A stretch of DNA of 64,000 nucleotides. Source: Bacteroidota bacterium. Its GTDB lineage: Bacteria > Bacteroidota > Bacteroidia > Cytophagales > Cytophagaceae. The stretch lies in contig JAEWAY010000010.1 in assembly GCA_023391415.1 (NCBI GenBank), positions 8,363-72,362 of the forward strand, written 5' to 3'. Numbering within the stretch: position 1 is the first letter of the stretch; every line of letters begins with the position of its first letter. Positions 6,129 to 37,903 of this stretch are shown here, piece by piece. Under the pieces are notes generated by a model, which did no database searches, was not told where the DNA came from, and saw only the letters and a list, made by a program, of their open reading frames with translations. The position numbers were made by a program, and so were the translations under genes.

Positions 6129-7406
6129 GTGACATTTCAGCCAGAAAAAAACAATCATTGGTGGTTAGCTATATTATCCGGCATTTTGCTATGGTCCGCG
6201 TGGGCGGAAGGCGCTCTCGGATTTTTACTGCACACCGCGCTGATTCCGCTACTGATTATTGAGTCGGAATTATCGGAGCGTCCCTATAAAAAAAAAGCTA
6301 CGCGTTACTTTCTCCTTCTACTACTGTCTTTTACACTATGGCATAGCTTGTCAGCCTGGAGTACTACCCGCTTTGAGACGACTACGATTATTATCAGAGC
6401 CTTAATGTCTGCAATTCCCATGATGTTGTTTTTCTTCACAAAGAAAACCGCCGGGAACATCGCCGGATATTTTTCATTGATCATGTACTGGATCGCTTTT
6501 GAATACATTTATTCGTATTGGGGTGAAAAAACCCTGTGGCCCATATTGGGCAATGGTTTTTCGTCCCTGACTTACTTAATCCAATGGTACGAAATTACCG
6601 GTTCACAGGGAGGTTCATCATGGATCCTAGCCGGCAATCTCATTTTATTTCATTCGATCCAAAACAGACGAATAAACAGCCTGGGAATCACAATCTTCGC
6701 GATGCTATTCATAATTCCATCCTCCATATCCCTGATCCGTTACTTAAGCTATCACAATATGGATCATCCATATAAAGTCATCATTATTGAACCTTTTTCT
6801 CGTCTCAATCAATCCTCATCGGCTGAATATACGTCCATGCAAACACTCCATGATGGTTTCCAGGAGTCCCGAAAAGATCCGGAAACGTCCTCCAGCCTGC
6901 CGCATAAACCAAAAAACGGCGGAGAAGCCAGAGGACGAACAACATGGCTGACCTCTCCAACGACAACTTGGATATCAAAAAAAAATAAGCGCGCTAGATC
7001 CTTTATCCAAAGCGGTTTATTCAACATCAATCAATTTCCGACAGGAGAAACCATAACCGGACGCGTGCGACAAGGCGCGCGTTTTATAGTCCTTATCGCC
7101 AATCAGGAAACGGACGCTCATATTCAATATACCCGTTTGCGAAGCATTGAAACCCGAAGAGATATTATTCTCGTCTCGGAAGGAGAATCAGTCTTTCATA
7201 TCAATCAGAAAGGCGACATAATGGATGTCTCCATATTCTCCGAACCTCCACCGAAATTACAGGGAAACGATATACGACTGAATGATCTTAAAACATTTTA
7301 TGTTAAATATGGTGATTATATAGGCATAAGCTCACTATATTTTTCATTAATTTGCATATTCATATTGCTAGGAGGAATTCTTGTCAACAGAACAAACTTT
7401 ATATGA
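6129..7406 (+). CDS. apolipoprotein N-acyltransferase (Lnt)-like protein with a shortened, apparently degenerate CN-hydrolase domain
   Basis: N-terminal multi-TM region and C-terminal segments (GARFIVLIAN, RLRSIETRRDIILVS, TFYVKYGDYIG plus a final TM) resemble Lnt. The ORF is only 425 aa and the central about 90 aa look non-homologous. Confidence 0.55.
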   Translation: MTFQPEKNNHWWLAILSGILLWSAWAEGALGFLLHTALIPLLIIESELSERPYKKKATRYFLLLLLSFTLWHSLSAWSTTRFETTTIIIRALMSAIPMMLFFFTKKTAGNIAGYFSLIMYWIAFEYIYSYWGEKTLWPILGNGFSSLTYLIQWYEITGSQGGSSWILAGNLILFHSIQNRRINSLGITIFAMLFIIPSSISLIRYLSYHNMDHPYKVIIIEPFSRLNQSSSAEYTSMQTLHDGFQESRKDPETSSSLPHKPKNGGEARGRTTWLTSPTTTWISKKNKRARSFIQSGLFNINQFPTGETITGRVRQGARFIVLIANQETDAHIQYTRLRSIETRRDIILVSEGESVFHINQKGDIMDVSIFSEPPPKLQGNDIRLNDLKTFYVKYGDYIGISSLYFSLICIFILLGGILVNRTNFI

Positions 7407-8203
7407 AAGCGGATCTTCAGGAACTATGTCTTCAAGTAACGGAATTATCCAAATCCGTCGGAGCGTTTATAAAGAATGAAGCGGAAAACTTTGACCGTTC
7501 AAAAATTGAACATAAAGGACCTTCCGACCTTGTATCGTACGTTGATAAGGAGGCGGAAAAAAAATTAGTAAAAGGACTCTCTGAAATCCTGCCGGAGGCG
7601 GGTTTTATTACAGAAGAGTCGACCGTAGCGCGAGAAGACAAGGAGTATAAATGGGTAATCGACCCGCTTGACGGAACTACCAATTTTCTACACCAAATGC
7701 CTGTGTTTTCCATAAGCATCGCCCTGATGCACAAGAACATGGTGATCATTGGAGTAGTATACGAAATCAACAGGAATGAATGTTTTTATGCCTGGAAAAA
7801 TGGGAAAGCCTGGCTCAATGGCAAGCAAATCACAGTCTCTCCGATCAACAATCTCCAGGAATCACTTATCGCCAGCGGATTTCCTTATAGTCAGGAAGGG
7901 AAATCAGCCCGTCATTTTACAATCCTGAGGGAATTGCAGGACCGAACCCACGGTATCCGCCGGCTTGGCTCGGCGGCTGTCGATCTTTCGTATGTCGCCT
8001 GTGGCCGCTTTGAAGCCTACTATGAGTTCAATCTACACATCTGGGATGTCGCCGCCGGCATACTTATTGTACAGGAAGCCGGAGGAACCTTACGCGACTT
8101 TGATGGTGGCGAAGATTATCTTTACGGAAAAGAAATTCTGGCCGCGGGCCCTCTCGCCAAAGAGGTATTAGATATCATCCAAAAACACTGGAACACAAAG
8201 TAA
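7403..8203 (+). CDS. inositol monophosphatase family protein (SuhB/CysQ-like)
   Basis: Motifs WVIDPLDGTTNF and WDVAAG. ATGA start/stop overlap with the upstream ORF. Confidence 0.85.
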   Translation: MKADLQELCLQVTELSKSVGAFIKNEAENFDRSKIEHKGPSDLVSYVDKEAEKKLVKGLSEILPEAGFITEESTVAREDKEYKWVIDPLDGTTNFLHQMPVFSISIALMHKNMVIIGVVYEINRNECFYAWKNGKAWLNGKQITVSPINNLQESLIASGFPYSQEGKSARHFTILRELQDRTHGIRRLGSAAVDLSYVACGRFEAYYEFNLHIWDVAAGILIVQEAGGTLRDFDGGEDYLYGKEILAAGPLAKEVLDIIQKHWNTK

Positions 8204-9481: not shown

Positions 9482-10003
9482 TTAATAATCAAGTGTCTCT
9501 AGCAGTTCGTGTAGTTTTTGTTTGGTCTTTACGGCAAAGTCAAAATAACCAGACTTCCATTTAAAAGCCGGGTCCCCCTCTTTCATTATTTCAATAAGCG
9601 TAGTAGCCTTAAACCAGGAGATTACATGAAACAAGGAGCCTTCCACCAAAAAAGGATTTTTATGGCTGACCATAAGGCCAAAAGCGATTTCATATTGAGA
9701 GACGACATTGTAATATAAATGCTTTTTACCTATACGCTTACCACTCAGATCGATGTCGATATACCCAAAAAAACTGTTGTCTTTAAAAATATAGTCTCCG
9801 ATTTCGATATTATTGAAATGTATAGGAATATCGTTCCAGATCTTTTCAACAATCCTTCCGGCGGAGGTAAGCGTATCGTTATGAACAAAAGGATCAATTC
9901 CCTCGCCGGAAGCGATGGAAACCATGTACCTCCCTTCGATACCGTAAGAATCATCCTGGAAAATTCCAGGTTTTACAATATTTCTGTACGAGACAAGTTC
10001 CAT
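9482..10003 (-). CDS. hypothetical protein
   Basis: ORF abuts the stop of the upstream gene and appears to be in the same operon. The C-terminal WKSGYFDF...LHELL faintly recalls inactive REP/IS200-type Y1 transposase-like proteins, but I cannot support that call. Confidence 0.5.
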   Translation of the reverse strand: MELVSYRNIVKPGIFQDDSYGIEGRYMVSIASGEGIDPFVHNDTLTSAGRIVEKIWNDIPIHFNNIEIGDYIFKDNSFFGYIDIDLSGKRIGKKHLYYNVVSQYEIAFGLMVSHKNPFLVEGSLFHVISWFKATTLIEIMKEGDPAFKWKSGYFDFAVKTKQKLHELLETLDY

Positions 10004-25080: not shown

Positions 25081-28000
25081 GTTGTGATTTGCTTTCATTC
25101 ATTGAAATACTGAGATTTACTACAACCACCTGCCAAGATTTATCCCCTCTGTAATAGTTGTGATTTGCTTTCATTCATTGAAATACTGAGATTTACTACA
25201 ACTGATTGCAGCTACGACATACACGACATTATGTTGTGATTTGCTTTCATTCATTGAAATACTGAGATTTACTACAACAAGAACTCGACACTCCGGATCC
25301 TTGCCCAAGTTGTGATTTGCTTTCATTCATTGAAATACTGAGATTTACTACAACCTAAAAATTAATCCCCCTGCAAATCACCGGTTGTGATTTGCTTTCA
25401 TTCATTGAAATACTGAGATTTACTACAACGCCAGGCTCGATTTCAATATCAAGACCGGAGTTGTGATTTGCTTTCATTCATTGAAATACTGAGATTTACT
25501 ACAACTATATTAAGTGTACCGCCTAACTGGCCATAGTTGTGATTTGCTTTCATTCATTGAAATACTGAGATTTACTACAACCTTTTTTTATACTTCCGGT
25601 ATTTGCTTAGAGTTGTGATTTGCTTTCATTCATTGAAATACTGAGATTTACTACAACATAGTTAAAGGATATCCGGACAATACATTGTTGTGATTTGCTT
25701 TCATTCATTGAAATACTGAGATTTACTACAACGTAGTATCAAGCATATGATCAATTCGCTCCGTTGTGATTTGCTTTCATTCATTGAAATACTGAGATTT
25801 ACTACAACACTATCCGAGTGACTGAAAGTATCTTCCTAGTTGTGATTTGCTTTCATTCATTGAAATACTGAGATTTACTACAACTTGCATACGGTAAACT
25901 TTGTTGTTATTGTAAGTTGTGATTTGCTTTCATTCATTGAAATACTGAGATTTACTACAACTAAAAACCCTTGATTTTACAAGGGTTTTCGGTTGTGATT
26001 TGCTTTCATTCATTGAAATACTGAGATTTACTACAACAGTTGACGAGCGTATTAAAGTCGCGTTGTCGTTGTGATTTGCTTTCATTCATTGAAATACTGA
26101 GATTTACTACAACCAGATGGAAAACGCCTGTCTACATATCCAAGTTGTGATTTGCTTTCATTCATTGAAATACTGAGATTTACTACAACGCCGTGGCAAT
26201 CGCCCCAACTCCTGTATTGGTTGTGATTTGCTTTCATTCATTGAAATACTGAGATTTACTACAACACAACAGAATCCCCTCTTTATCGGGCAACAGTTGT
26301 GATTTGCTTTCATTCATTGAAATACTGAGATTTACTACAACATAGAAAGTAAAATTATCGTCTTCTTGCTGGTTGTGATTTGCTTTCATTCATTGAAATA
26401 CTGAGATTTACTACAACCGGAGTCAGGTACATGGTTGAGTGTCTTTAGTTGTGATTTGCTTTCATTCATTGAAATACTGAGATTTACTACAACCCAATTT
26501 GGGGTATACCGACTCGGATCTAGGTTGTGATTTGCTTTCATTCATTGAAATACTGAGATTTACTACAACACAGTTACACAATGAACAACTACAGATGTAG
26601 TTGTGATTTGCTTTCATTCATTGAAATACTGAGATTTACTACAACACTGATGATCTATGAATTACTTAGACTACGGTTGTGATTTGCTTTCATTCATTGA
26701 AATACTGAGATTTACTACAACAAATCTTGGAATTCGCGGAGAGTTTAGGCGGTTGTGATTTGCTTTCATTCATTGAAATACTGAGATTTACTACAACTGT
26801 AATCTCCCGCGGAGAAAGTTCCATGAGGTTGTGATTTGCTTTCATTCATTGAAATACTGAGATTTACTACAACAAATCTTGGAATTCGCGGAGAGTTTAG
26901 GAGGTTGTGATTTGCTTTCATTCATTGAAATACTGAGATTTACTACAACTTGCTTCCAGAAAACGCGACCAAGGAGTAGTTGTGATTTGCTTTCATTCAT
27001 TGAAATACTGAGATTTACTACAACAGCATTCTCCGTTTTGGTCGCAGCCTCGCCGTTGTGATTTGCTTTCATTCATTGAAATACTGAGATTTACTACAAC
27101 CTTTCTGCAATACCTCAAGCATTGCTTTAGTTGTGATTTGCTTTCATTCATTGAAATACTGAGATTTACTACAACTCAACCGGGGATTGAAACACCGGGG
27201 CAACAGTTGTGATTTGCTTTCATTCATTGAAATACTGAGATTTACTACAACGGCGAAGTTTGGCGGAGCAATCATAATAGGTTGTGATTTGCTTTCATTC
27301 ATTGAAATACTGAGATTTACTACAACCTGATGAGCTAACTACTCATCGAATTTTAAGTTGTGATTTGCTTTCATTCATTGAAATACTGAGATTTACTACA
27401 ACGAAGAAACTCAGGTGGAGACATGGCCGCCAGTTGTGATTTGCTTTCATTCATTGAAATACTGAGATTTACTACAACGGTAGCGGATTGTTCGCTGATC
27501 CCCGTTAGTTGTGATTTGCTTTCATTCATTGAAATACTGAGATTTACTACAACTTATGAGCATAAGGACGGTGGCAAGTGACAGTTGTGATTTGCTTTCA
27601 TTCATTGAAATACTGAGATTTACTACAACTGGCTGGTTTTTTCCATTATGGATACATTAGTTGTGATTTGCTTTCATTCATTGAAATACTGAGATTTACT
27701 ACAACTCCCTGTAGTATGTCAAGTCTATTAATTGCAGTTGTGATTTGCTTTCATTCATTGAAATACTGAGATTTACTACAACAGTAAAAATGGATTTTAA
27801 AACATTACCAAGGTTGTGATTTGCTTTCATTCATTGAAATACTGAGATTTACTACAACAGTAAATCGCTTTTCAATCAAATCCTTTGTGTTGTGATTTGC
27901 TTTCATTCATTGAAATACTGAGATTTACTACAACTTCTTTCCAAAATCGCCAACGCTCTCGGAAGTTGTGATTTGCTTTCATTCATTGAAATACTGAGAT

Positions 28001-28690
28001 TTACTACAACCCGAGGTTAGCGTTTCTTTTCATTCCGTTAGTTGTGATTTGCTTTCATTCATTGAAATACTGAGATTTACTACAACCATCAGCCGCCCAT
28101 ATCCGGTAATCGGTTGAGTTGTGATTTGCTTTCATTCATTGAAATACTGAGATTTACTACAACAAAAAACTAGCTGAATGGATGCAGGAAGGGTTGTGAT
28201 TTGCTTTCATTCATTGAAATACTGAGATTTACTACAACTGATGAGCTAACTACTCATCGAATTTTAAGTTGTGATTTGCTTTCATTCATTGAAATACTGA
28301 GATTTACTACAACTCCCTGAATATTTACGTTTCTAATTATCTGTTGTGATTTGCTTTCATTCATTGAAATACTGAGATTTACTACAACAGTCGATGCGAG
28401 CAATTCTAGCTTTACTAGTTGTGATTTGCTTTCATTCATTGAAATACTGAGATTTACTACAACTAGCTTTCAATTCGCTTCGCTTCGATCAGGGTTGTGA
28501 TTTGCTTTCATTCATTGAAATACTGAGATTTACTACAACTTTCTATCCCTTGGAGAAAAGGAGTATGAAGTTGTGATTTGCTTTCATTCATTGAAATACT
28601 GAGATTTACTACAACCATATGATTATGTTCAAAGCTAGTTGCTAGTTGTGATTTGCTTTCATTCATTGAAATACTGAGATTTACTACAAC
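25081..28690 (+). CRISPR. CRISPR array 1: 48 identical 46-nt repeats and 47 spacers of 29-31 nt
   Basis: I counted repeat starts one by one from 25081, 25157, 25233 through 28570 and 28645. Repeat is GTTGTGATTTGCTTTCATTCATTGAAATACTGAGATTTACTACAAC. Strand is assigned from anti-repeat complementarity (see the tracrRNA feature). Confidence 0.97.
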
Positions 28691-28807: not shown

Positions 28808-29146
28808 CTAAAATAGCTCCAATTGCTGGGGTGTATCGGGCCGCCGGGCCGATTTGGGACCCCGGAAAAATTCCATCCGACCAAACTGCGCGTCGGTAAT
28901 CTCAAAGATGATCACCTCCCCTTTTTCGGGCAGCAGGCTTTTGACCCGTTTTTTGTGTACTTCGGCATTTTCGCGGCTGTTGCAATGCCGGGAGTAGATG
29001 CTATACTGCACCATAGCAAAGCCATCCTTGAGCAATCCTTTGCGAAAGGTAGCGTAGGCCTTGCGGTCTTTTTTGGTTTCGGTCGGCAAATCAAAATATA
29101 CAAATACCCACATGATGCGATACTGGTTGAAGCGTTCGGTTGACAT
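28808..29146 (-). CDS. cas2: CRISPR-associated endoribonuclease Cas2
   Basis: 112 aa starting from [22 protein letters not shown], a Cas2 ferredoxin-fold N-terminus. The longer 155-aa reading overlaps cas1 and is unlikely. Confidence 0.9.
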
Positions 29147-29159
29147 AAACACACTTTTT

Positions 29160-30059
29160 TCAGAGTTCCGGATAAGGCACTTTACGCTTTGTTCCCTCAA
29201 AGCAGGCCATGAGGCCGGCCGTAGTATGCTGCATTGCCACCATGAGGGGGCGGAGCTTGCCATCGATGGTGACATCTGTCACCGGTAGTTGCAGTAATGT
29301 AGCCTTGTCGGCGGTACGCAGGGTTTCGGGCATATGAGGCAGTTCCGCCAGCCAGCGCAACACCAGCAGATCGGCAATGGGGCGGTACGGCTCCATGATA
29401 TCATCGGCCAGGCAAAAGGAGTTGTACTTGTTGCGATGGTGTATACCCAGAGCCGGCAAAAAACCGCTCATGACCAGACTGCGAGCCGTAATAGCCCGGA
29501 GTATGGCATAGGCATAGTTGAAAAAAGGATTGGGCATAGGCTCATCCTGCCCGCGGGTGACCTCGTAGCCCCGCAGTATCAGATCCCAGTAGCGGGAAGC
29601 CGCCCGACCCTCCATATTTTCGGGATCTCCGCTGTTCACTTTTTCGGCTATTTTGCGTACAGCCGATCCATCATAGCCCAGTGTATCAAGTACAGCGGCC
29701 TGATTGAGAATTTTCTGCTCTATGGTCTGCTTCCAGATCTGTTTTTTGAGTGGTTCGCTGGCTTCCATCTGCGTACGCAGGGCTTCGGTAAAGGTGGAGT
29801 TGCCCTGCATATTCCAGGTGAGGGCTCCAGGCATATGCCTATCGTCGCACCAGATCACGGCAGCGTAGTGTTGAGCCAGTGCAGACACCACACTTTGGGT
29901 AAAAGTGATCTGCCGGTGATCGAGCACCAGCACACCTATATCTTCCAGAGGCACCTGACGGCTCTCCCGATCACTGTCTTTGGGAAACTCTACCAACAGT
30001 TGACCATAGCGAATGCTCAGGTGTGCCGGGTTTTCGAAGTAAAGAGTTCGTTTGATCAT
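29160..30059 (-). CDS. cas1: CRISPR-associated endonuclease Cas1 (type II)
   Basis: About 299 aa starting from [15 protein letters not shown]. Type II Cas1-like features ([37 protein letters not shown]). Confidence 0.95.
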
Positions 30060-30160
30060 AGTACCACACAACAGAAAGCTATGTGGATAAATACAAAAAT
30101 GTGGTACTTTGGTTTAAAAAAAGAGAATTTGACAACGCTCATTATCAGAACAACAAATGA

Positions 30161-30243: not shown

Positions 30244-33200
30244 TTATATGTCAACAGTCTCTTCTGTCTTATCCACCATATTGCTTCTCAATACATTTAC
30301 AGGTCGTACATTGCCAAGCCGGTCGATATGTACTTTGATGCAACAGGCTTTGATCATCCGCTCTTCATCAAAGCCTTTGTCACTATTACCCCACGGCCGC
30401 TCAGACTTGTTATTCGAACCAAGCTCTTTGGTATCTATGATCGGTCGCGCTATATGAGCCGGAGCAAAGAAACACTGTCCTTTGTTGGAGCTTTTCATAA
30501 TATACAGACGCTCCACTATCTTCTTTTTGTCTGTCCAGTCAATTTGTGCCACATCTTCATCAGCGGTCGGCACATAAACAGTATCGCCCGGCGACAGTAT
30601 GATGTATCCGGCATCCGGATTTTGATCATGAACAGGCAATTTTTTGGCAAGGCGTGGTATCACCTCCAAAAATGGCGGAGTTGAGTATTTTCTTACCACT
30701 TGAAGCTCTCCAGTTTTTTTATTCTCTTCCTGAACGATTTCTATGACAAAATACTGATTAACTCCCTTGTCTCCATCAAGTAGCTTATTATCCAATTCGA
30801 TTTTGTCACCGCCTTCTTTGCGCGAAATTTTATTGATCGGAAATGGCGACAATCTAAGCAACTGTTCGAGCCCTTCCCCTTTAAACGCCTTTTTGGGATC
30901 ATTATCATAATTTGCCAGATGTTCACGCAATAGCTTTGGAAGCCAGTTATTGGCATGATGCGCATTGGGTAGATTTTCTATTTTGTCAATTGTAAATGAA
31001 TCGTCTATAGCAACCCGCTTGGATGCGTACTTCCTGAATTGCATCATATCTAGTTTATCCAGTACCTGTCCTGTACCTTCATCAAACACCGGATTGGATC
31101 GCAAATAGGTCAAAACCGCTTTCAAATCATGATTGTACCTGACAATAATGCTGCTGATTGTTCTGCGCAAGCTGGTTTTGGCAATACGCCAGTCTTCCGA
31201 CTTCCAGATATTTCCGGATTGAATAAACTCCGATTGTGTCTTGACCGCTTTGCTCAGATCGACATTCTTTTTGTATTCCGGCAGGTATATTCTGCCCAAT
31301 GGCTGCCCAAACAGCGATTGCCGCACAGCCACCCAATATTTGTCATCGGATACAGGAGCGGATTGCAATTCAAGTACCTTTTTCCATTGTCCCTCCACTT
31401 GTTTCCAGCGCCAGTATCGGTTCGTTGTCGGACTCACCAATCGGGACGATGGCTTGTAAGACACCGCTACCCGCTCCAGATGCTCTCTGACATTTTTAAA
31501 AAATATTCCGTCATTCTCAGTACCCCAGGGTGGAGCAAACTCTGTCATACCAATTGTCTCTCCCCGTAGTTCTTTCTCTTTTTTGAGCAAGTATTTCCAT
31601 TTTTTCCAATAAGTATACCGCTCATTGTCGGCCGGATCATTGCTAAAAGAACTAAGTGAGTTGAGATATTGGATATGCCTGCGGGTGGTACAGGCTACTA
31701 TGAGACCATCAAGGGCCTGATGCCTGTGATCAATACGCTTGTAATCTTTCGCAAAATGAATATCCTTCCGCTTATCTGGATTATCTATGATCAGTTGTTC
31801 GCCCGTAAGACGTTGCAGACGCTCAAAACGAGGCCGGACCAGCTCTTTCCATAACTTATGCAAGCCCCATTTATACTTAAGATCAGAAGTTATGGCACCA
31901 TTAGTATATACAATACCATCATTCGTTTCATTCCCTTTGGCTACCGGACGCAGAAACTGCGCTATTGTGCGGGCCAGGTAGCGGGTATCGTTTAGCTGGC
32001 GCTCTACAAAGTCTTCCGGTATTTCACTAAGTTTAAGATATCTGCGTTTCTTTTTGGAAAAGATGGCATCTACATTTTTCAGGTACGTCTCCATATCCAA
32101 TACTTTTGCCTCACCATCACGCCCCTGCATATCTTCAATAAACTGTATGGCGGTGCGATTGCCTTTGATTGCGTTGACTTTGGCCTCTACAATTACCTTA
32201 TTTCCAATTGAGTCATCATAAAAGCGACTCCGGGGCAATATATGATCAATCTGGTATTTTTCTGTAAAAAGATCACTAAGCTTGATCGGTTTGCCAGTAT
32301 AAGGCGAACGATAGCCCTGCTCTGCCCAAAGCTTGTATTTTTCAATGTCCGCATTGCTTACAAACTCCGCTTTATTGGTTTTGAATATCGATTCAAACTG
32401 CTCTTCCGCCTGGCGACCTCCATTTTCTTTCCATAGACGGAACCGATCCTGATCTGCCGGAGAATCCGGGTTGGCCTGCGGGCACCGAAGCTCTCTCAGT
32501 AAGGCTTCGATACGCGCTCTTTCAAGCCGGTTTTTCATATTATAGGTGAAGTCATCCTTCCGCTGCTTATTGTTTTTGCGAAGCTCACGCCCCAGCTCCA
32601 CGTGTATATAGTCTGGCCGACCCAAAGCGGGATCCTGCCATATATCCCTGACCAGATTGAGAGCTTCGCGTACCAGTTTTTCTACAACGGGATTGCGCAT
32701 GGAGTTGTATGGGACCAGCTCCCGGATACGCAGATCGGCCACGCTATCGTATTTATGCTCATTGGCAGGCTCGCTGTGTCGTCCGTAAGCTACATAACAG
32801 GCTGTGGTGACAGATAAGCCTTGAAAATCGGTGAGCGAATAAAGATTTTCTTTCTGCACATGCCTACGCGCCACATCAGAAATTGATGTCCCGTCTTCAC
32901 CATCAATAAACAACTCAATCCGGCTTCTAAGATCTATAGCTGGTTGCAGACTATAGCCTTTTTGTCCTTTGGCTTTGGGATACAGACCTTCTTCGCACCA
33001 GTACCTGCCGGTACGCATGAGGGGCAAAAGGTTGTTGAGCGCTCTTACAGAGTATGCGGCATACTCGCTTTTAAAAGCCGGCAGACTCGCCAGATGCTTT
33101 ATCAGAGGCTGAGGAAAATCAAAATACTTTGTGTTGGATAAAGCGGATTCTATATCTTTCTTTTCGGGCAGAGAATATAGGACATGCCAAAGCTGATGCA

Positions 33201-34869
33201 GCCTGTGCGGGTCGGCAAGTAGTGCTTCGCCCTGCTGTTGAAAGCTGTGTTTTCGAAACACTTTGCGAAAGAGCGCTTTGGTCTGATTGCCCGGAAAGGA
33301 TGTATCTTCCGGATAATTGAGCCGGACAGGATATGTTTTGCCGTCGGCCTCCAACCTGTTCTTTTTAAAACCCAGATGCTGCAATATAGCATCGCAGGTT
33401 ACCTCCGCGCTCTGGTCAAAAAGTTCGAACAAGCGCTCTTTGGCCTCGGTAGTAAGATGCTCACCAGAATCATTGGAGCTGTTTTGTTGCCTTCTACCAA
33501 CCTGTTTTTCTTTGTCGTGAATACGTAAGTTGTGAATGGTCTGCCAAATTCTGAACTCCTGAAACAAGGGATGACTTTTGGGCGCTACTTTTATTCCGGC
33601 TGAACATTGTACACCATCCTTGTCCAGATAGGTTCTGGATTCGTAGCGGCAATTGGCAAGCAAACCCTTCTGAGACTTGAGACCTCGCTGATAGTATATA
33701 ATATCGTTGCGAAAAATATGGTATAGATCTCTTGATCTGATCTCTTTATTTTTTTGCCGGTTGTGTACATAAAATGCGTCTGCTATGGCATCGATGTTGG
33801 TACGATCAGCAAATATGTCTTTATAGTACCGCTCCTGACATTGCCAGATCGCGTCCATTTCTTTCTGATAAAAAGACCGGTCTACGATACGCTCTCTGAT
33901 ACGATAGTTGCGGTCTTGCCGCAACTGCTGCAAATAATATTCCGACAGGTGCAGCGAGGTACGGTTTACGTCTTTTTCAAGTGCTTCTTTGCGATTTTGC
34001 CAGTCGGCCGGATCTACTTCGGCTACTGTGTAGCTGACTTCTCCTGATTTGGTTGTCTTGCGGGAGATGGTCAGCTCCAGATCCTTGCCCTTCCAGTCCG
34101 GAGCCTGCCGTCTTCTCTGTATTACTTCAAAAGACAGCTCTCCTGCTCTACAGTGCAGCTTGAAAAAGTTTTGATCTTTGTTTTTTCCCTGTGCAGGGCC
34201 CAGATCTTCAATATCCTGTATATGGACGATCTCGATCCATTTTTCGGTTATAGGGTACTTCACTGAGTCGGATTCCTGGTCGCTCTCTGCCTGGATCTGG
34301 TCCTTGCGACTGCTCCTGAAGCCCCGACGCTGATTGTAATGATAAAGTACACGGGCAAGTTCAGTCAGGCTGATTTGCTCTCTAAGAGCTTTGGCCTTGA
34401 GATAATAGATTATCCAGTCTTCGGGTATTTCGTATTGCTCTCCCTGTGCGTTGAGCTGACCGGTAATTTCAAAATAATCGGCCACCTCCCGCCTCAAATC
34501 ATCGGAATAAGGCAGGTAGGATTTGATAGTATGATTGGGATTTTTCTTAAAATCTTCAGGAAATTCCGGCGACAGCCAACCCAATATCTTAAAGGCTCTG
34601 ATAAGACGTGTACGACGTAGCTTGTAGCGGTGATTGAGACGGCGGGCGCCACGGGCCAGACGGCGGGCTGCGGCTTTTGACTCGGGTGTGCCCGACTCAA
34701 ACTTGCTGAGCGCATCGCCCTCCATAGGAATAATACGGCTGCCCAGGCGCAGTATGCGACCTTGCAGCTTCGCAGGCTCGTTATCATCATAGATATTGCT
34801 CTCTATCATGGCCCAACCAATAGAATTGGTACCGAGGTCCAAGCCAAGTATTCTTTTCATATCGGACAT
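30244..34869 (-). CDS. cas9: Cas9 (type II-C-like, 1541 aa)
   Basis: RuvC-I GLDLGTNSIGWA, an Arg-rich bridge helix AAARRLARGARRLNHRYKLRRTR, HNH DHILPRSRFYDDSIGNKVIVEAKVNAIKGNRTA, RuvC-III DHRHQALDGLIV. cas1 and cas2 follow. Confidence 0.95.
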   Translation of the reverse strand: MSDMKRILGLDLGTNSIGWAMIESNIYDDNEPAKLQGRILRLGSRIIPMEGDALSKFESGTPESKAAARRLARGARRLNHRYKLRRTRLIRAFKILGWLSPEFPEDFKKNPNHTIKSYLPYSDDLRREVADYFEITGQLNAQGEQYEIPEDWIIYYLKAKALREQISLTELARVLYHYNQRRGFRSSRKDQIQAESDQESDSVKYPITEKWIEIVHIQDIEDLGPAQGKNKDQNFFKLHCRAGELSFEVIQRRRQAPDWKGKDLELTISRKTTKSGEVSYTVAEVDPADWQNRKEALEKDVNRTSLHLSEYYLQQLRQDRNYRIRERIVDRSFYQKEMDAIWQCQERYYKDIFADRTNIDAIADAFYVHNRQKNKEIRSRDLYHIFRNDIIYYQRGLKSQKGLLANCRYESRTYLDKDGVQCSAGIKVAPKSHPLFQEFRIWQTIHNLRIHDKEKQVGRRQQNSSNDSGEHLTTEAKERLFELFDQSAEVTCDAILQHLGFKKNRLEADGKTYPVRLNYPEDTSFPGNQTKALFRKVFRKHSFQQQGEALLADPHRLHQLWHVLYSLPEKKDIESALSNTKYFDFPQPLIKHLASLPAFKSEYAAYSVRALNNLLPLMRTGRYWCEEGLYPKAKGQKGYSLQPAIDLRSRIELFIDGEDGTSISDVARRHVQKENLYSLTDFQGLSVTTACYVAYGRHSEPANEHKYDSVADLRIRELVPYNSMRNPVVEKLVREALNLVRDIWQDPALGRPDYIHVELGRELRKNNKQRKDDFTYNMKNRLERARIEALLRELRCPQANPDSPADQDRFRLWKENGGRQAEEQFESIFKTNKAEFVSNADIEKYKLWAEQGYRSPYTGKPIKLSDLFTEKYQIDHILPRSRFYDDSIGNKVIVEAKVNAIKGNRTAIQFIEDMQGRDGEAKVLDMETYLKNVDAIFSKKKRRYLKLSEIPEDFVERQLNDTRYLARTIAQFLRPVAKGNETNDGIVYTNGAITSDLKYKWGLHKLWKELVRPRFERLQRLTGEQLIIDNPDKRKDIHFAKDYKRIDHRHQALDGLIVACTTRRHIQYLNSLSSFSNDPADNERYTYWKKWKYLLKKEKELRGETIGMTEFAPPWGTENDGIFFKNVREHLERVAVSYKPSSRLVSPTTNRYWRWKQVEGQWKKVLELQSAPVSDDKYWVAVRQSLFGQPLGRIYLPEYKKNVDLSKAVKTQSEFIQSGNIWKSEDWRIAKTSLRRTISSIIVRYNHDLKAVLTYLRSNPVFDEGTGQVLDKLDMMQFRKYASKRVAIDDSFTIDKIENLPNAHHANNWLPKLLREHLANYDNDPKKAFKGEGLEQLLRLSPFPINKISRKEGGDKIELDNKLLDGDKGVNQYFVIEIVQEENKKTGELQVVRKYSTPPFLEVIPRLAKKLPVHDQNPDAGYIILSPGDTVYVPTADEDVAQIDWTDKKKIVERLYIMKSSNKGQCFFAPAHIARPIIDTKELGSNNKSERPWGNSDKGFDEERMIKACCIKVHIDRLGNVRPVNVLRSNMVDKTEETVDI

Positions 34870-34910
34870 AAGGTTGAAATGTTAAATTATCTAAAAAAGC
34901 ACCTGATGAA

Positions 34911-34933
34911 GATAAATTAAAGCAAATCACAAC
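34911..34933. other. orphan repeat/anti-repeat element in the cas9 upstream region
   Basis: Plus strand 34919-34933 reads AAAGCAAATCACAAC, the exact reverse complement of repeat positions 1-15. On the cas9 strand this reads GTTGTGATTTGCTTT, 50-64 nt upstream of the cas9 ATG. Confidence 0.5.
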
Positions 34934-35493
34934 ACAAGTCTTTTCCAACATTCTTCCAAGTTGTTATAGATTTGTTATTGGCTTCTCACCAGGCGCCAGT
35001 ATTCTCAGCTGATCATCCGTATATCCAAAAATGCAAAGGTCGATAATCCCTATTATAGAACAAAATCAGGACAGTGAAACTTACTCAACAGTATCAACGT
35101 CACCTTCTATATCTGCCATTCTTTATTATTTCTATTAGTTGATCATATGATCTATTTCGATTAGATCCAGTCTTCCCCAAAGACACATTCAGCCGAATCG
35201 ATATAGTGCCTTTTTTCACTAACTTTATCAATATAAAAATAAACAAAAGATTTGTAGAAATATTAAAAATAGAAGGATCAAATAAATGTAGTTGCTGCAT
35301 CCACTTGTGTTTTTAATGAGAACACAATTTTATCAAAAGATTTGTAGAAATACAAATTTTAAACATTGCCAACCTTAGATTCTCCCTTATCCTCCAATTC
35401 TCATTTGTTTATCTCTTTGAGCCTGCAACGACAAAGTTCATATATGAAATAACATCCTTACCTTATATTGATAGCACACGAAAAAATATAGAC

Positions 35494-35618
35494 AAAAAAA
35501 CGCCCCGATAAAATCGAGGCGGCCCCGATGATGTCGAGACACATATCGAATCACTACGGAATGATCCTTATTGTGATTTGCTGATTGAAAGGTAGTGTAT
35601 TTTATACATTTATACAAC
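35494..35618 (-). ncRNA. candidate tracrRNA
   Basis: Parts of the minus-strand RNA in order:
- Anti-repeat ...CCUUUCAAUCAGCAAAUCACAAU.
- AAGG plus a small GGA-UCAU-UCC nexus-like hairpin.
- A 9-bp hairpin GUGAUUCGA...UCGA(C)AUCAU.
- A terminator hairpin CGCCUCGAU-UUU-AUCGGGGCG followed by U7.
The anti-repeat pairs with repeat nt 1-13 and with the AUUGAAA segment of array 1. Confidence 0.6.
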
Positions 35619-35633
35619 CCCTAGGTCTGATTT

Positions 35634-35951
35634 TTAGCTTTTTGTCTGAGACATACTACTGACCTTGTATTGCAACAGCTCGTTGTACAGCTCTAGTGTC
35701 ATGGTCTTGAGGTTTTCAAAAAATACGGGCAGCGGCACCTCCACCAAGCGCTCTATGGTCTGGTGATAGCGCTGGTAAAGCTCATCGCTGCGCTGCTCGC
35801 GCCCAAAACCCATCAGCTCCAGCACCTGCCGGTCGAGATCGGTATAAAAATCGTCGGCTGTAAATCCGGCCTTTTCCAGACCGTACAAAAGTTTTGAATT
35901 TTTGAGGTCCGCTCGTAAAAGTGAGAGAATTAATTCCTTTGGATATTCCAT
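35634..35951 (-). CDS. hypothetical small helical acidic protein (105 aa)
   Basis: Clean ORF ending 15 nt upstream of the tracrRNA candidate. No recognisable family. Confidence 0.5.
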   Translation of the reverse strand: MEYPKELILSLLRADLKNSKLLYGLEKAGFTADDFYTDLDRQVLELMGFGREQRSDELYQRYHQTIERLVEVPLPVFFENLKTMTLELYNELLQYKVSSMSQTKS

Positions 35952-36261
35952 AATCTTTGGATTAAAAGTTTAACTATCCAAAGATAAACGATACAAAAAA
36001 CACTGTTTTTCAAGGTTTTTTTAACCAAAACGATATATAATTTAGCTAATCCGATATTTAAATTAACTGATTCTATATTTTTTAGCTCAGATAAAAAATA
36101 ATGACTTTTTTTCCACAACCCCTTCTCTTTTTGCTAACTTCATTCTGCTAATTAGTGAGATTTACTACAACTTACAACTTCCTCCCCAGAGTTCCTTGCA
36201 GTTGTGATTTGCTTTCATACAGCTTCCTACATGTTGCTTTTGAAAAAACTGGAAACAATTT

Positions 36262-36285
36262 ATATGTACAGATTGTTGTACATAT
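36262..36285 (+). promoter_or_regulatory. putative YefM-YoeB operator (paired TGTACA hexamers)
   Basis: ATATGTACA-gattgt-TGTACATAT. The TGTACA cores are at 36265-36270 and 36277-36282, 12 bp centre to centre and about 50 nt upstream of yefM. E. coli yefM-yoeB operators use TGTACA-core palindromes. Confidence 0.55.
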
Positions 36286-36331
36286 GATGATAATTAATTA
36301 AATTGAATCAGTTAATTGATCCCAGAATATT

Positions 36332-36586
36332 ATGGAAGTAACAACATACACCAATTTAAGACAGCATCTGAAGGCATATCTGGACAAGGTAGTAAAACAA
36401 CATACGCCTCTGTTTGTGACAAGATCAGGCAGTGAGGAAGTAGTAATACTCTCCAAATCTGATTTTGAAAGTATGCAAGAGACCTTCTACCTCCTGCAAT
36501 CGCCGGCAAACGCGGTCAGGCTGCACCGGGCTTTGCAAGAATACAAAGAGGGTAAAGGCACTAAAAGGAATCTGATAGAAGAGTAA
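36332..36586 (+). CDS. yefM: type II antitoxin, Phd/YefM family
   Basis: 84 aa. MEVTTYTNLRQHLKAYLDKV...PLFVTRSG...VVILS...ETFYLL is the classic YefM pattern. Confidence 0.9.
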   Translation: MEVTTYTNLRQHLKAYLDKVVKQHTPLFVTRSGSEEVVILSKSDFESMQETFYLLQSPANAVRLHRALQEYKEGKGTKRNLIEE

Positions 36587-36588
36587 AT

Positions 36589-36843
36589 ATGGACATTGTT
36601 TTTTCGTCCGACGCATGGGACGATTATTTATATTGGCAGGAACATGACAAAAAAATGTTGAAAAAAATCAACGCTCTGATTAAGGAAATAGAAAGAACCC
36701 CCTTTGAAGGATCTGGCAAACCAGAGCCGTTAAAACACGCTCTGGCCGGGTGCTGGTCGAGAAGAATTAATCTTGAGCATCGACTCGTGTATCAGTTTGA
36801 TGACAGTGCTGTTTTTATTCTGCAATGCAGATACCATTATTAG
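36589..36843 (+). CDS. yoeB: type II toxin, YoeB/Txe family mRNA interferase
   Basis: 84 aa. AWDDYLYWQEHDKKMLKKINALIKEIERTPFEGSGKPEPLKHALAGCWSRRINLEHRLVY...RYHY is near-canonical YoeB. It starts 2 nt after the yefM stop. Confidence 0.9.
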   Translation: MDIVFSSDAWDDYLYWQEHDKKMLKKINALIKEIERTPFEGSGKPEPLKHALAGCWSRRINLEHRLVYQFDDSAVFILQCRYHY

Positions 36844-37903
36844 ATTGATTTACTACAACAATAGCTCTCGAAGAGTTAGAGAGTTTTTGTTGTGATTTGC
36901 TTTCATTCTGCTAATTAGTGAGATTTACTACAACAGGGTTCCGCATTCTGAAACATATAGTTCGTTGTGATTTGCTTTCATTCTGCCAATTAGTGAGATT
37001 TACTACAACTTTAAATAAAGTTTAACTAACTTTATGTTGTTGTGATTTGCTTTCATTCTGTCAATTAGTGAGATTTACTACAACTAAAATAAAGATCAGT
37101 AGGGTTCTGAACAGGTTGTGATTTGCTTTCATTCTGCCAATTAGTGAGATTTACTACAACTCAAATCCTTCACATAGGGTTAATTATGTTGTGATTTGCT
37201 TTCATTCTGCCAATTAGTGAGATTTACTACAACGGAATCGATTCAACCGACTGGTTATTGTATGTTGTGATTTGCTTTCATTCTGCCAATTAGTGAGATT
37301 TACTACAACCAATTTACTGGGAAGCCCATCATTTCCCCGTTGTGATTTGCTTTCATTCTGCCAATTAGTGAGATTTACTACAACAGATGTCCGATTAATA
37401 TTACTTTATTAACGTTGTGATTTGCTTTCATTCTGCCAATTAGTGAGATTTACTACAACGATTTCTTAAAACGTTGAATCGCTCGTAAGTTGTGATTTGC
37501 TTTCATTCTGCCAATTAGTGAGATTTACTACAACGATTGATGATAAGGCGGTCACTATGCCTTCGTTGTGATTTGCTTTCATTCTGCCAATTAGTGAGAT
37601 TTACTACAACACTATACTTCATTTTCCTTGAATTTTATTGTTGTGATTTGCTTTCATTCTGCCAATTAGTGAGATTTACTACAACTCGCCAATAATTTGG
37701 TACACCTTTTTCCCGGTTGTGATTTGCTTTCATTCTGCCAATTAGTGAGATTTACTACAACCTAGGTCTCTCTAGTTGGCTTCTTTACAAGGGTTTATTG
37801 CCAATATCAAGATCAGAAAACGGAGGCAAAACACCACCCATGTCAAAAAAGTAAGCCGGTTTTTGAAATCCTGTGACTCTATAAATACAGCGGTGGTGGT
37901 GTA

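Follow-up and report, generated by a model that had tools for sequence, protein, structure and literature searches.

A predicted tracrRNA of a Bacteroidota type II-C CRISPR-Cas9 locus that probably serves both arrays

A stretch of 64,000 nucleotides (nt) of a Bacteroidota genome (contig JAEWAY010000010.1, positions 8,363 to 72,362), referred to here as the window, contains a type II-C CRISPR-Cas9 locus (CRISPR, short palindromic repeats that are clustered and regularly interspaced). An element on its minus strand at 35618-35494, with a core at 35582-35494, is almost certainly the trans-activating CRISPR RNA (tracrRNA) of this locus. An original prediction, made from the letters alone, had proposed this identity. 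Homology, co-variation with the repeats, a compensated nexus, a terminator and the neighbourhood of cas9 now agree on it. Taken as a whole, the likely reading is that of a locus tracrRNA that serves both CRISPR arrays and is made as a short form with a start at about 35582.

The element is located 625-749 nt upstream of cas9 and on the same strand, between cas9 and the second array (array 2), which agrees with the distance of about 0.7 kb first given for it. Read on the minus strand, 35618-35494 consists of GTTGTATAAATGTATAAAATACACTACCTTTCAATC, AGCAAATCACAAT, AAGG and ATCATTCC and what follows, with T7 at the end. The core (35494-35582) is the probable primary transcript of about 89 nt and holds a 13-nt anti-repeat, a nexus, a linker, two hairpins and U7. 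It folds at -29 kcal/mol (z = -3.2). The anti-repeat (35570-35582), AGCAAAUCACAAU in the RNA and AGCAAATCACAAT in the DNA, pairs, in both arrays, with repeat nt 1-13 (GUUGUGAUUUGCU). This pairing covers 13 base pairs (bp), including one G-U pair, at -16.5 to -17.1 kcal/mol. AAGG and a 3-bp nexus hairpin, GGA-UCAU-UCC, follow at 35558-35569. Hairpin 1, GUCUCGA-CAUCA-UCGGGGC, has 7 bp (35522-35540) and resembles a tandem duplicate of the terminator hairpin, which is single in relatives. The intrinsic terminator (35494-35521) is a 9-bp GC-rich hairpin, CGCCUCGAU-UUU-AUCGGGGCG (35521-35501), followed by U7. The coordinates and parts that were first listed (anti-repeat with one G-U pair, AUUGAAA match, nexus, hairpins and U7) were all found in place. 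The two 3' hairpins and U7 are present as described, but the 9 bp that had been assigned to the middle hairpin belong to the GC-rich terminator, and the middle one (35540-35522) has 7 bp.

Relatives of the locus were collected from one genome match (L001), 80 metagenome loci and 11 contigs reached through protein homologues. Most of the metagenome relatives have a Cas9 of about 31% identity, and a clade at about 55% identity was reached via individual proteins. There were 4236 Cas9 homologues at E <= 1e-50. About 80 type II-C loci of Bacteroidota have the core CAAATCACAAT-AAGGATyATTCCGTwGTGA with its terminator next to cas9. In nearly all loci with enough upstream DNA, cas9 was found beside an anti-repeat that ends in CACAAT, the AAGGATyATTCCGTwGTGA segment and a terminator hairpin. 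A family profile built from 63 sequences, the sequence of the window lineage among them, has one match in the window, at 35582-35543 (E = 4.9e-12), which puts the core well outside of what chance would give.

The anti-repeat tracks the repeat of its own locus. For example, GTTGTGAATTCC occurs with GGAATTCACAAT, GTTGTGATTAGC with GCTAATCACAAT, and GTTGTGATTTAC with GTAAATCACAAT. Repeat variants such as GAATTCC, GATTAGC and GATTTAC are each matched by their own anti-repeat (54 repeat/anti-repeat pairs). The nexus is paired in 27 of 27 distinct family sequences, and two of its three pairs show a compensatory change (G-C to A-U in L082, A-U to C-G in L017), which 0 of 500 shuffles reach. The 125-nt region differs from that of the sister genome L001 by one substitution (0.8%). 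The adjoining 105-amino-acid (aa) open reading frame (ORF; 35634-35951, minus strand) has 25 substitutions over its 318 nt. Of these, 22 fall on third codon positions, about 20% of which differ. Several features expected of a Cas9 tracrRNA are present here: an anti-repeat, a cas9-cas1-cas2 locus with an array, a nexus, a terminator, co-variation and a validated homologue.

The linker that follows the nexus (family, GUUGUGA; window, GUAGUGAUU; region 35548-35582, minus strand) is nearly identical to repeat nt 1-9. A free tracrRNA is therefore predicted to fold back onto its own anti-repeat (AAUCAC with GUGAUU). For the window sequence, RNAfold chose an 8-bp helix, GGAUCAUU with AGUGAUUC, instead of the 3-bp nexus. 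This helix was rejected, since it is limited to the clade, and across the family it is 57% paired with 0 compensatory changes. In two relatives, tracrRNA copies occur twice per locus, L005 (362 and 50, minus) and L032 (7892 and 7376, minus). The L032 copies differ in the anti-repeat (GCGAATC and GCAAATC), with a solo repeat between them.

The validated homologue is the tracrRNA of Fp2Cas9 from Flavobacterium psychrophilum, which was tested in vitro and contains GAAGCAAUUCACAAUAAGGAUUAUUCCGUUGUGAAAAC and UUUUGAAGCAAUUCACAAUAAGGAUUAUUCCGUUGUGAAAACAUUUAAAGCGG (PMC12609912, Table S2). Searched as text, the core sequence gave nothing relevant in the main texts of the literature and was present in this supplement. 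The Fp2Cas9 tracrRNA and the element of the window both have an anti-repeat ending in CACAAU, AAGGAUUAUUCCGU, a linker (GUUGUGA.. in Fp2) and a terminator hairpin (PMC12609912; PMC10309648). Both are also located upstream of cas9 in Bacteroidota type II-C loci with repeats of 46-47 nt that begin with GUUGUGA. The predicted tracrRNA is a further member of this known and experimentally validated Bacteroidota type II-C family. It differs from the Fp2Cas9 tracrRNA in its linker, GUAGUGAUUC, and in having two 3' hairpins instead of one. In the canonical, Fp2-like form, the tracrRNA is on the strand opposite to cas9 with a contiguous anti-repeat of about 22-25 nt, whereas that of the window is on the cas9 strand with 13 nt. 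The window belongs to a clade of 12 members (the window lineage, L002, L082-L084 and L087-L092), and wherever an array of a member was available, contiguous complementarity ends at 13 nt. The cas9 strand, the duplicated 3' hairpin and the probable restriction of the anti-repeat to 13 nt are traits at the level of the lineage. The identity between the two Cas9 proteins is about 30%, an estimate taken from distant metagenome relatives (29-35%) and not from Fp2Cas9 itself. A putative tracrRNA of Riemerella anatipestifer is similar in its short 16-nt anti-repeat, TGAAAGCAATTCACAA, its position upstream of cas9 and its 47-nt repeats (PMC5006608). It is unlike the element of the window in that it was predicted from the anti-repeat alone and belongs to a different Cas9 lineage (PMC5006608).

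The two arrays are both read on the plus strand. Array 1 (25081-28690) has 48 identical 46-nt repeats, GTTGTGATTTGCTTTCATTCATTGAAATACTGAGATTTACTACAAC, with the middle ATTGAAATAC and 47 spacers. Array 2 (36114-37761) has the middle TGCCAATTAG and two single-base variants of it (TGCTAATTAG and TGTCAATTAG). Only nt 21-30 distinguish the two repeat types, which agree at nt 1-20 and 31-46. The original prediction held that the tracrRNA is tuned to array 1 rather than array 2. Its starting point is correct: AUUGAAA is confined to the repeats of array 1 (48 of 48), and array 2 has one of its three middles at nt 21-30. TTTCAAT (35590-35584), upstream of the anti-repeat, is complementary to ATTGAAA at nt 21-27 of the array-1 repeat, with 7 nt left unpaired on the side of the CRISPR RNA (crRNA) and 1 nt on the side of the tracrRNA. 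The tuning drawn from this match is not supported. Counting intermolecular pairs only, the lower stem is worth -17.1 kcal/mol, the full array-1 duplex -18.9 kcal/mol and the array-2 duplex -18.6 to -19.0 kcal/mol. The 7 bp of AUUGAAA with UUUCAAU add about 2 kcal/mol, and array 2 gains about as much from a 5-bp alternative. Co-folding by repeat type, which had been proposed as a check, thus shows no clear preference (-18.9 for array 1 vs -18.6 kcal/mol for array 2, a gap of 0.3 kcal/mol). Array-2 crRNAs are also not limited to a 13-bp lower stem, as had been thought, since UAGUG (nt 28-32) can pair with CACUA (35597-35593), provided that a long RNA exists. When repeat nt 14-36 were shuffled, a perfect helix of at least 7 bp arose in 30 of 2000 shuffles (1.5%) and an energy as good or better in 813 of 2000 (41%). 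The 7-bp upper match is marginal against chance.

The relatives also speak against a selected preference for array 1. In L001 (Cas9 95% identical), TTTCAAT is intact and the tracrRNA has one substitution, and both arrays (23 + 23 full repeats) have middles of the array-2 type. L085 (Cas9 97% identical) is arranged like the window, having repeats of the array-1 type beside cas2 and those of the array-2 type upstream. No spacer is common to the window, L001 and L085 in any array. Arrays of the array-2 type have therefore been renewed since the strains diverged and are active at least in acquisition. Fp2Cas9 provides a precedent. It cleaves with tracrRNA(25-99), whose anti-repeat has 14 nt, and with a crRNA in which 16 nt of the repeat remain (PMC12609912). 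In the best Fp2Cas9 single guide, 16 nt from the repeat are joined to 15 nt from the anti-repeat, and a duplex of 14-16 bp is enough for cleavage in vitro (PMC12609912). Neither a clearly better pairing with one array nor selection for it was found, given the energy gap, the repeats of L001 and the overlap of TTTCAAT with a promoter box that is described below. Because the two repeat types are identical at nt 1-20, one tracrRNA probably serves both arrays comparably. Three possibilities had been raised for array 2: that it is less functional, that it relies on a different partner, or that only the lower stem matters. The last is favoured, also by the truncation data on Fp2Cas9. A different partner is unsupported within the window, where the family profile has its single match and no isolated complement of the array-2 repeat middle was found outside array 2.

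The segment directly upstream of the anti-repeat (35583-35618, minus strand) is derived from a repeat and contains TTTCAAT and CACTA. It is probably the promoter of the tracrRNA, or else the 5' part of a longer isoform. It has a TTG at -33 (35617-35615), a 20-nt spacer and a -7 box, TACCTTTC (35594-35587), that is 4 nt before the anti-repeat. These elements suggest a Bacteroidetes-type promoter. Before AGCAAATC, ten of the 12 clade members have TAnnTT at -12..-7, and two have it at -13..-8. Of 52 loci across the family, 28 have a -7 box (TAnnTT..) that ends 4-5 nt ahead of the contiguous complementarity, and in 40 this gap is 2-7 nt. Measured back from AAGG, the box positions peak at 26-28 nt (canonical loci) and 17 nt (the clade of the window). 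In the wider family the box position follows the length of the anti-repeat. TTTCAAT overlaps the TACCTTTC box and the 4 nt after it. It is thus probably absent from the main RNA and would act as promoter DNA, not as an upper stem. It is somewhat more likely than not that the main transcript starts near 35582. The RNA had been described as either derived from a 3' untranslated region (UTR) or internally promoted, with a start 15 nt past the stop of the 105-aa ORF. The distance is correct, as the stop codon ends 15 nt before 35618. Of the two origins, an internal promoter is favoured and a UTR origin less so, even though there is no terminator in between.

Several observations weigh against this reading. 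Rfam has no tracrRNA family that matches at E <= 10 over 24.5-38.5 kb, which shows only that no Rfam model covers this lineage. Both ends of the RNA are placed from sequence features. The missing terminator between the 105-aa ORF and the tracrRNA makes a co-transcript possible. The stretch 35618-35608 (GTTGTA-TAAAT) matches the reverse complement of the repeat 3' end at 11 of 12 positions, and the segment 35618-35583 clearly descends from a whole antisense repeat copy. In three strains, the 36 nt upstream of the anti-repeat are as conserved as the RNA itself. This conservation and the likeness to the repeat mean that a longer functional isoform could exist. The perfect 7-bp helix with array-1 repeats was, in addition, uncommon among the shuffles. 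The same lack of an Rfam match could suggest that nothing functional is present, only a decayed repeat copy beside a chance terminator. This is highly improbable, as about 80 loci keep the element with co-variation, the divergence from L001 is 0.8% against about 20% at third codon positions of the adjoining ORF, and the homologous Fp2Cas9 tracrRNA has been validated by experiment. A true partner of array 2, or of both arrays, could alternatively be sought at 34.9 kb, where AAAGCAAATCACAAC (34919-34933, plus strand) is perfectly complementary to repeat nt 1-15. That this is the anti-repeat is scarcely credible. The site does not have the AAGG nexus or the conserved tail, the profile matches it in the anti-repeat columns only (E = 6.6), and relatives conserve a closing stem and U-run on the cas9 strand, where the motif reads as a repeat. 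It is equally hard to believe that the 18-nt anti-repeat at 36218-36201 (minus strand) is a second tracrRNA for array 2. It is a perfect ATGAAAGCAAATCACAAC followed by TGCAAGG, but it stems from an array-2 repeat that yefM-yoeB has cut in two: the site is the 5' half, the 3' remnant is found at 36847-36859, and on the other side are a spacer and a first repeat that is degenerate. The site has no nexus homology and no terminator, and the same junction is found in L085. No second tracrRNA was found in the window by regex search or by the nhmmer profile. A weak Rfam match to CRISPR-DR49 at 36201-36259 (plus strand; 29 bits, E = 0.22) covers this 5' half and the start of the cassette and is probably partly due to chance.

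The alternative that deserves more weight is a longer tracrRNA that would start at about 35600-35618 or come from the 3' UTR of the ORF. Its UUUCAAU would form an upper stem with array-1 crRNAs only, and array 2 would be handled less well. The 7-bp complementarity is real, is collinear with the repeat and is rare as a perfect helix (30 of 2000), and canonical family members show co-varying upper stems of 6-8 bp. Yet the stem is worth about 2 kcal/mol only, with 41% of the shuffles as good or better and a gain for array 2 that is about equal. The outgroup loci L015, L069, L082 and L091 have middles like those of array 1 (TTTGAAnT). The array-2 type therefore looks derived, and the anti-repeat may have arisen from a repeat of the array-1 type. 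Against a present role, L001 has TTTCAAT and no array-1-type repeats, and arrays of the array-2 type turn over their spacers. A box-like TATAAATG further upstream (35614-35607) and the open path from the 105-aa ORF could supply the longer RNA, but TATAAATG has no TTG at the -33 distance and TTTCAAT overlaps the positionally conserved -7 box. In L001, a change of ACAAC to ACACC in the repeat is uncompensated in the distal GTTGTA segment, which argues against selection on distal pairing. The longer form is thus possible but rather unlikely, and the short form remains our reading. In L077, a repeat-like stretch, GTTGTGATTTGCCC..TATATCTTCA (6428-6479, minus), is present immediately upstream of the tracrRNA. 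This suggests that the promoter of the L077 tracrRNA was derived from a CRISPR repeat.

According to the short-form reading, the tracrRNA would be made from its own Bacteroidetes-type promoter (-33 TTG and -7 TACCTTTC), with a start at about 35582, and transcription would end at the last hairpin and U7. The crRNAs of both arrays would be transcribed on the plus strand, and the 13-nt anti-repeat would pair with nt 1-13 in the repeat part of the crRNA. The AAGG nexus and the 3' hairpins would then be the scaffold that is bound by Cas9. This is likely the guide-RNA scaffold (a 13-nt anti-repeat, a nexus and two hairpins) of an uncharacterised lineage of large Bacteroidota Cas9 proteins of about 1500 aa, and both arrays of the locus should be usable with it. 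A rule can also be offered for the phylum, in which the tracrRNA would start 4-5 nt past a TAnnTTTG-like box, where the complementarity to the repeat begins. Such a rule could assist in predicting the 5' ends of tracrRNAs from other genomes. The interest of the original prediction would have been in its array-specific tuning, which does not hold up.

Other type II-C systems can be compared with this locus. In Neisseria meningitidis and Campylobacter jejuni, crRNAs are reportedly transcribed from repeat-internal promoters and RNase III processing is said to be non-essential. These systems and the window have a minimal cas9-cas1-cas2 operon in common. They are unlike the window in their 36-nt repeats and unrelated tracrRNA, and the promoter elements of the window are of the Bacteroidetes type (TAnnTTTG). 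In the sub-family to which the window belongs, nt 8-11 of the repeat read TTTG and nt 32-39 form a -7-like box, which is GAGATTTA in the window (L082, TAGATTTG; L091, GATATTTG). These could be a repeat-internal promoter, which fits the repeat-internal promoters that have been described for Flavobacterium type II-C arrays (PMC10309648). Nt 21-30 are located between TTTG and the -7-like box and outside of the segment that pairs with the tracrRNA, and they would thus be free to drift. Streptococcus pyogenes has a long and a short tracrRNA, of which the long one acts as a natural single guide and represses the cas promoter (bioRxiv 10.1101/2020.05.21.102756). Two isoforms with two starts are possible in the window too, from the ORF co-transcript or the upstream box and from the internal promoter. 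A guide-like match to the cas9 promoter, as in the long form of S. pyogenes, was not found in the window.

Another repeat-related element is present between the tracrRNA and cas9. This solo-repeat element (34893-34997, minus strand) is not a tracrRNA. Its 13-mer, GTTGTGATTTGCT (34933-34921), has the same sense as cas9 and is identical to the part of the repeat that pairs with the tracrRNA. A stem of 34997-34982 with 34911-34898 encloses it in a terminator-like hairpin, followed by U6, and the U-run is 24 nt before the cas9 ATG. In the window, the element folds at -30 kcal/mol (z = -3.0). The 13-mer is exactly conserved in the window, L001 (element at about 9740-9870), L085 (element at about 7195-7330) and L086, and L083 (element at about 7865-7965; Cas9 57% identical), with flanks that are unrelated. 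In four of four lineages, a long-range stem encloses the motif with a U-run after it, and the arms differ yet pair: GGCGCCUGGUGAGAAG/CUUCAUCAGGUGCU in the window, CUACCCGGUG/CGCCGGGUAG in L001, CUACCCGGUGAGG/CCUCAUCGGGUAG in L085 and AAAUGCCUGACAAGA/UCUUGUCAGGCAUUU in L083.

Francisella novicida is said to possess a small CRISPR-Cas-associated RNA (scaRNA) with a lone degenerate repeat in the cas9 locus, which reportedly pairs with the tracrRNA anti-repeat and has a terminator-like 3' end. The solo repeat at 34.9 kb, and only this site, is similar in all of these respects, and as a lone repeat that can pair with the anti-repeat and is conserved in relatives it has one of the features that would be looked for in a scaRNA-like RNA. 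It is unlike scaRNA in that it is directly upstream of cas9 and has a long-range stem, and no seed-match target was found for it in the window. For the sequence upstream of the solo repeat, neither the window nor L001 nor L085 showed a guide-like seed match of at least 10 nt, and L083 has a single 11-nt match. A likeness of the L001 'guide' to the region before the cas9 ATG was at the end distal to the protospacer-adjacent motif and was judged to be a duplication, not a target. The solo repeat might be an RNA of the scaRNA type, it might sense the tracrRNA as a leader or attenuator, or it might be a relic. That 34997-34893 is a regulatory RNA or leader element is doubtful. If it were, the pairing of solo repeat and tracrRNA, whether Cas9 takes part or not, could give feedback on the expression of cas9 or aim Cas9 at an endogenous target. 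A type II-C system would then have a device akin to scaRNA or to an attenuator. A weaker reading is that long and short tracrRNA isoforms would treat the two repeat types differently. Between the tracrRNA and the solo repeat are 560 nt of AT-rich spacer that could not be aligned with L001. This spacer contains a 19-nt direct repeat, TATTTCTACAAATCTTTTG, twice and 90 nt apart (35334-35352 and 35244-35262, minus strand).

Array 2 begins at about 36114, not at 36889. Its first repeat is degenerate in nt 1-13 and is followed by one spacer. This repeat lost exactly nt 1-13 and kept 14-46, which fits a need for nt 1-13 only downstream of a spacer, as in plus-strand crRNAs. The second repeat is split after nt 18 (36218/36219) by the yefM-yoeB cassette (genes at 36332-36843). 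Its 3' remnant, GATTTACTACAAC, is at 36847-36859, and 12 further repeats are found from 36889 to 37761. The toxin-antitoxin cassette (36219-36846) replaces about nt 19-33 of the repeat. Its junction, ..GCTTTCAT|ACAGCTTCC.., is also present in L085, and L001 is without the insertion. The array region of L085 (2254-2765 and 5095-5846) has further cassettes, including a Gp49/helix-turn-helix pair, beside shortened repeats.

The cas genes are all on the minus strand. The cas9 gene (30244-34869, ATG at 34869) encodes 1541 aa with the Pfam families RuvC_III, HNH_4 and Cas9_a. The cas1 gene is at 29160-30071 (Cas_Cas1) and cas2 at 28808-29146 (CRISPR_Cas2), with a likely ATG at 29146 that would give 112 aa as in relatives. 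The 105-aa ORF directly upstream of the tracrRNA matched no family in Pfam and NCBIfam searches. It has its own perfect -7 box, TATCTTTG, at 35986-35979. It is under purifying selection, with 21 synonymous and 3 non-synonymous codon changes compared to L001, where it is also kept directly upstream of the tracrRNA. L085 and L086 have a 107-aa gene in this position. Between cas9 and cas1, the loci L082, L089, L090, L091 and L092 possess extra genes, which include DUF6036-like ORFs, endonuclease V and a hicA-hicB toxin-antitoxin pair.

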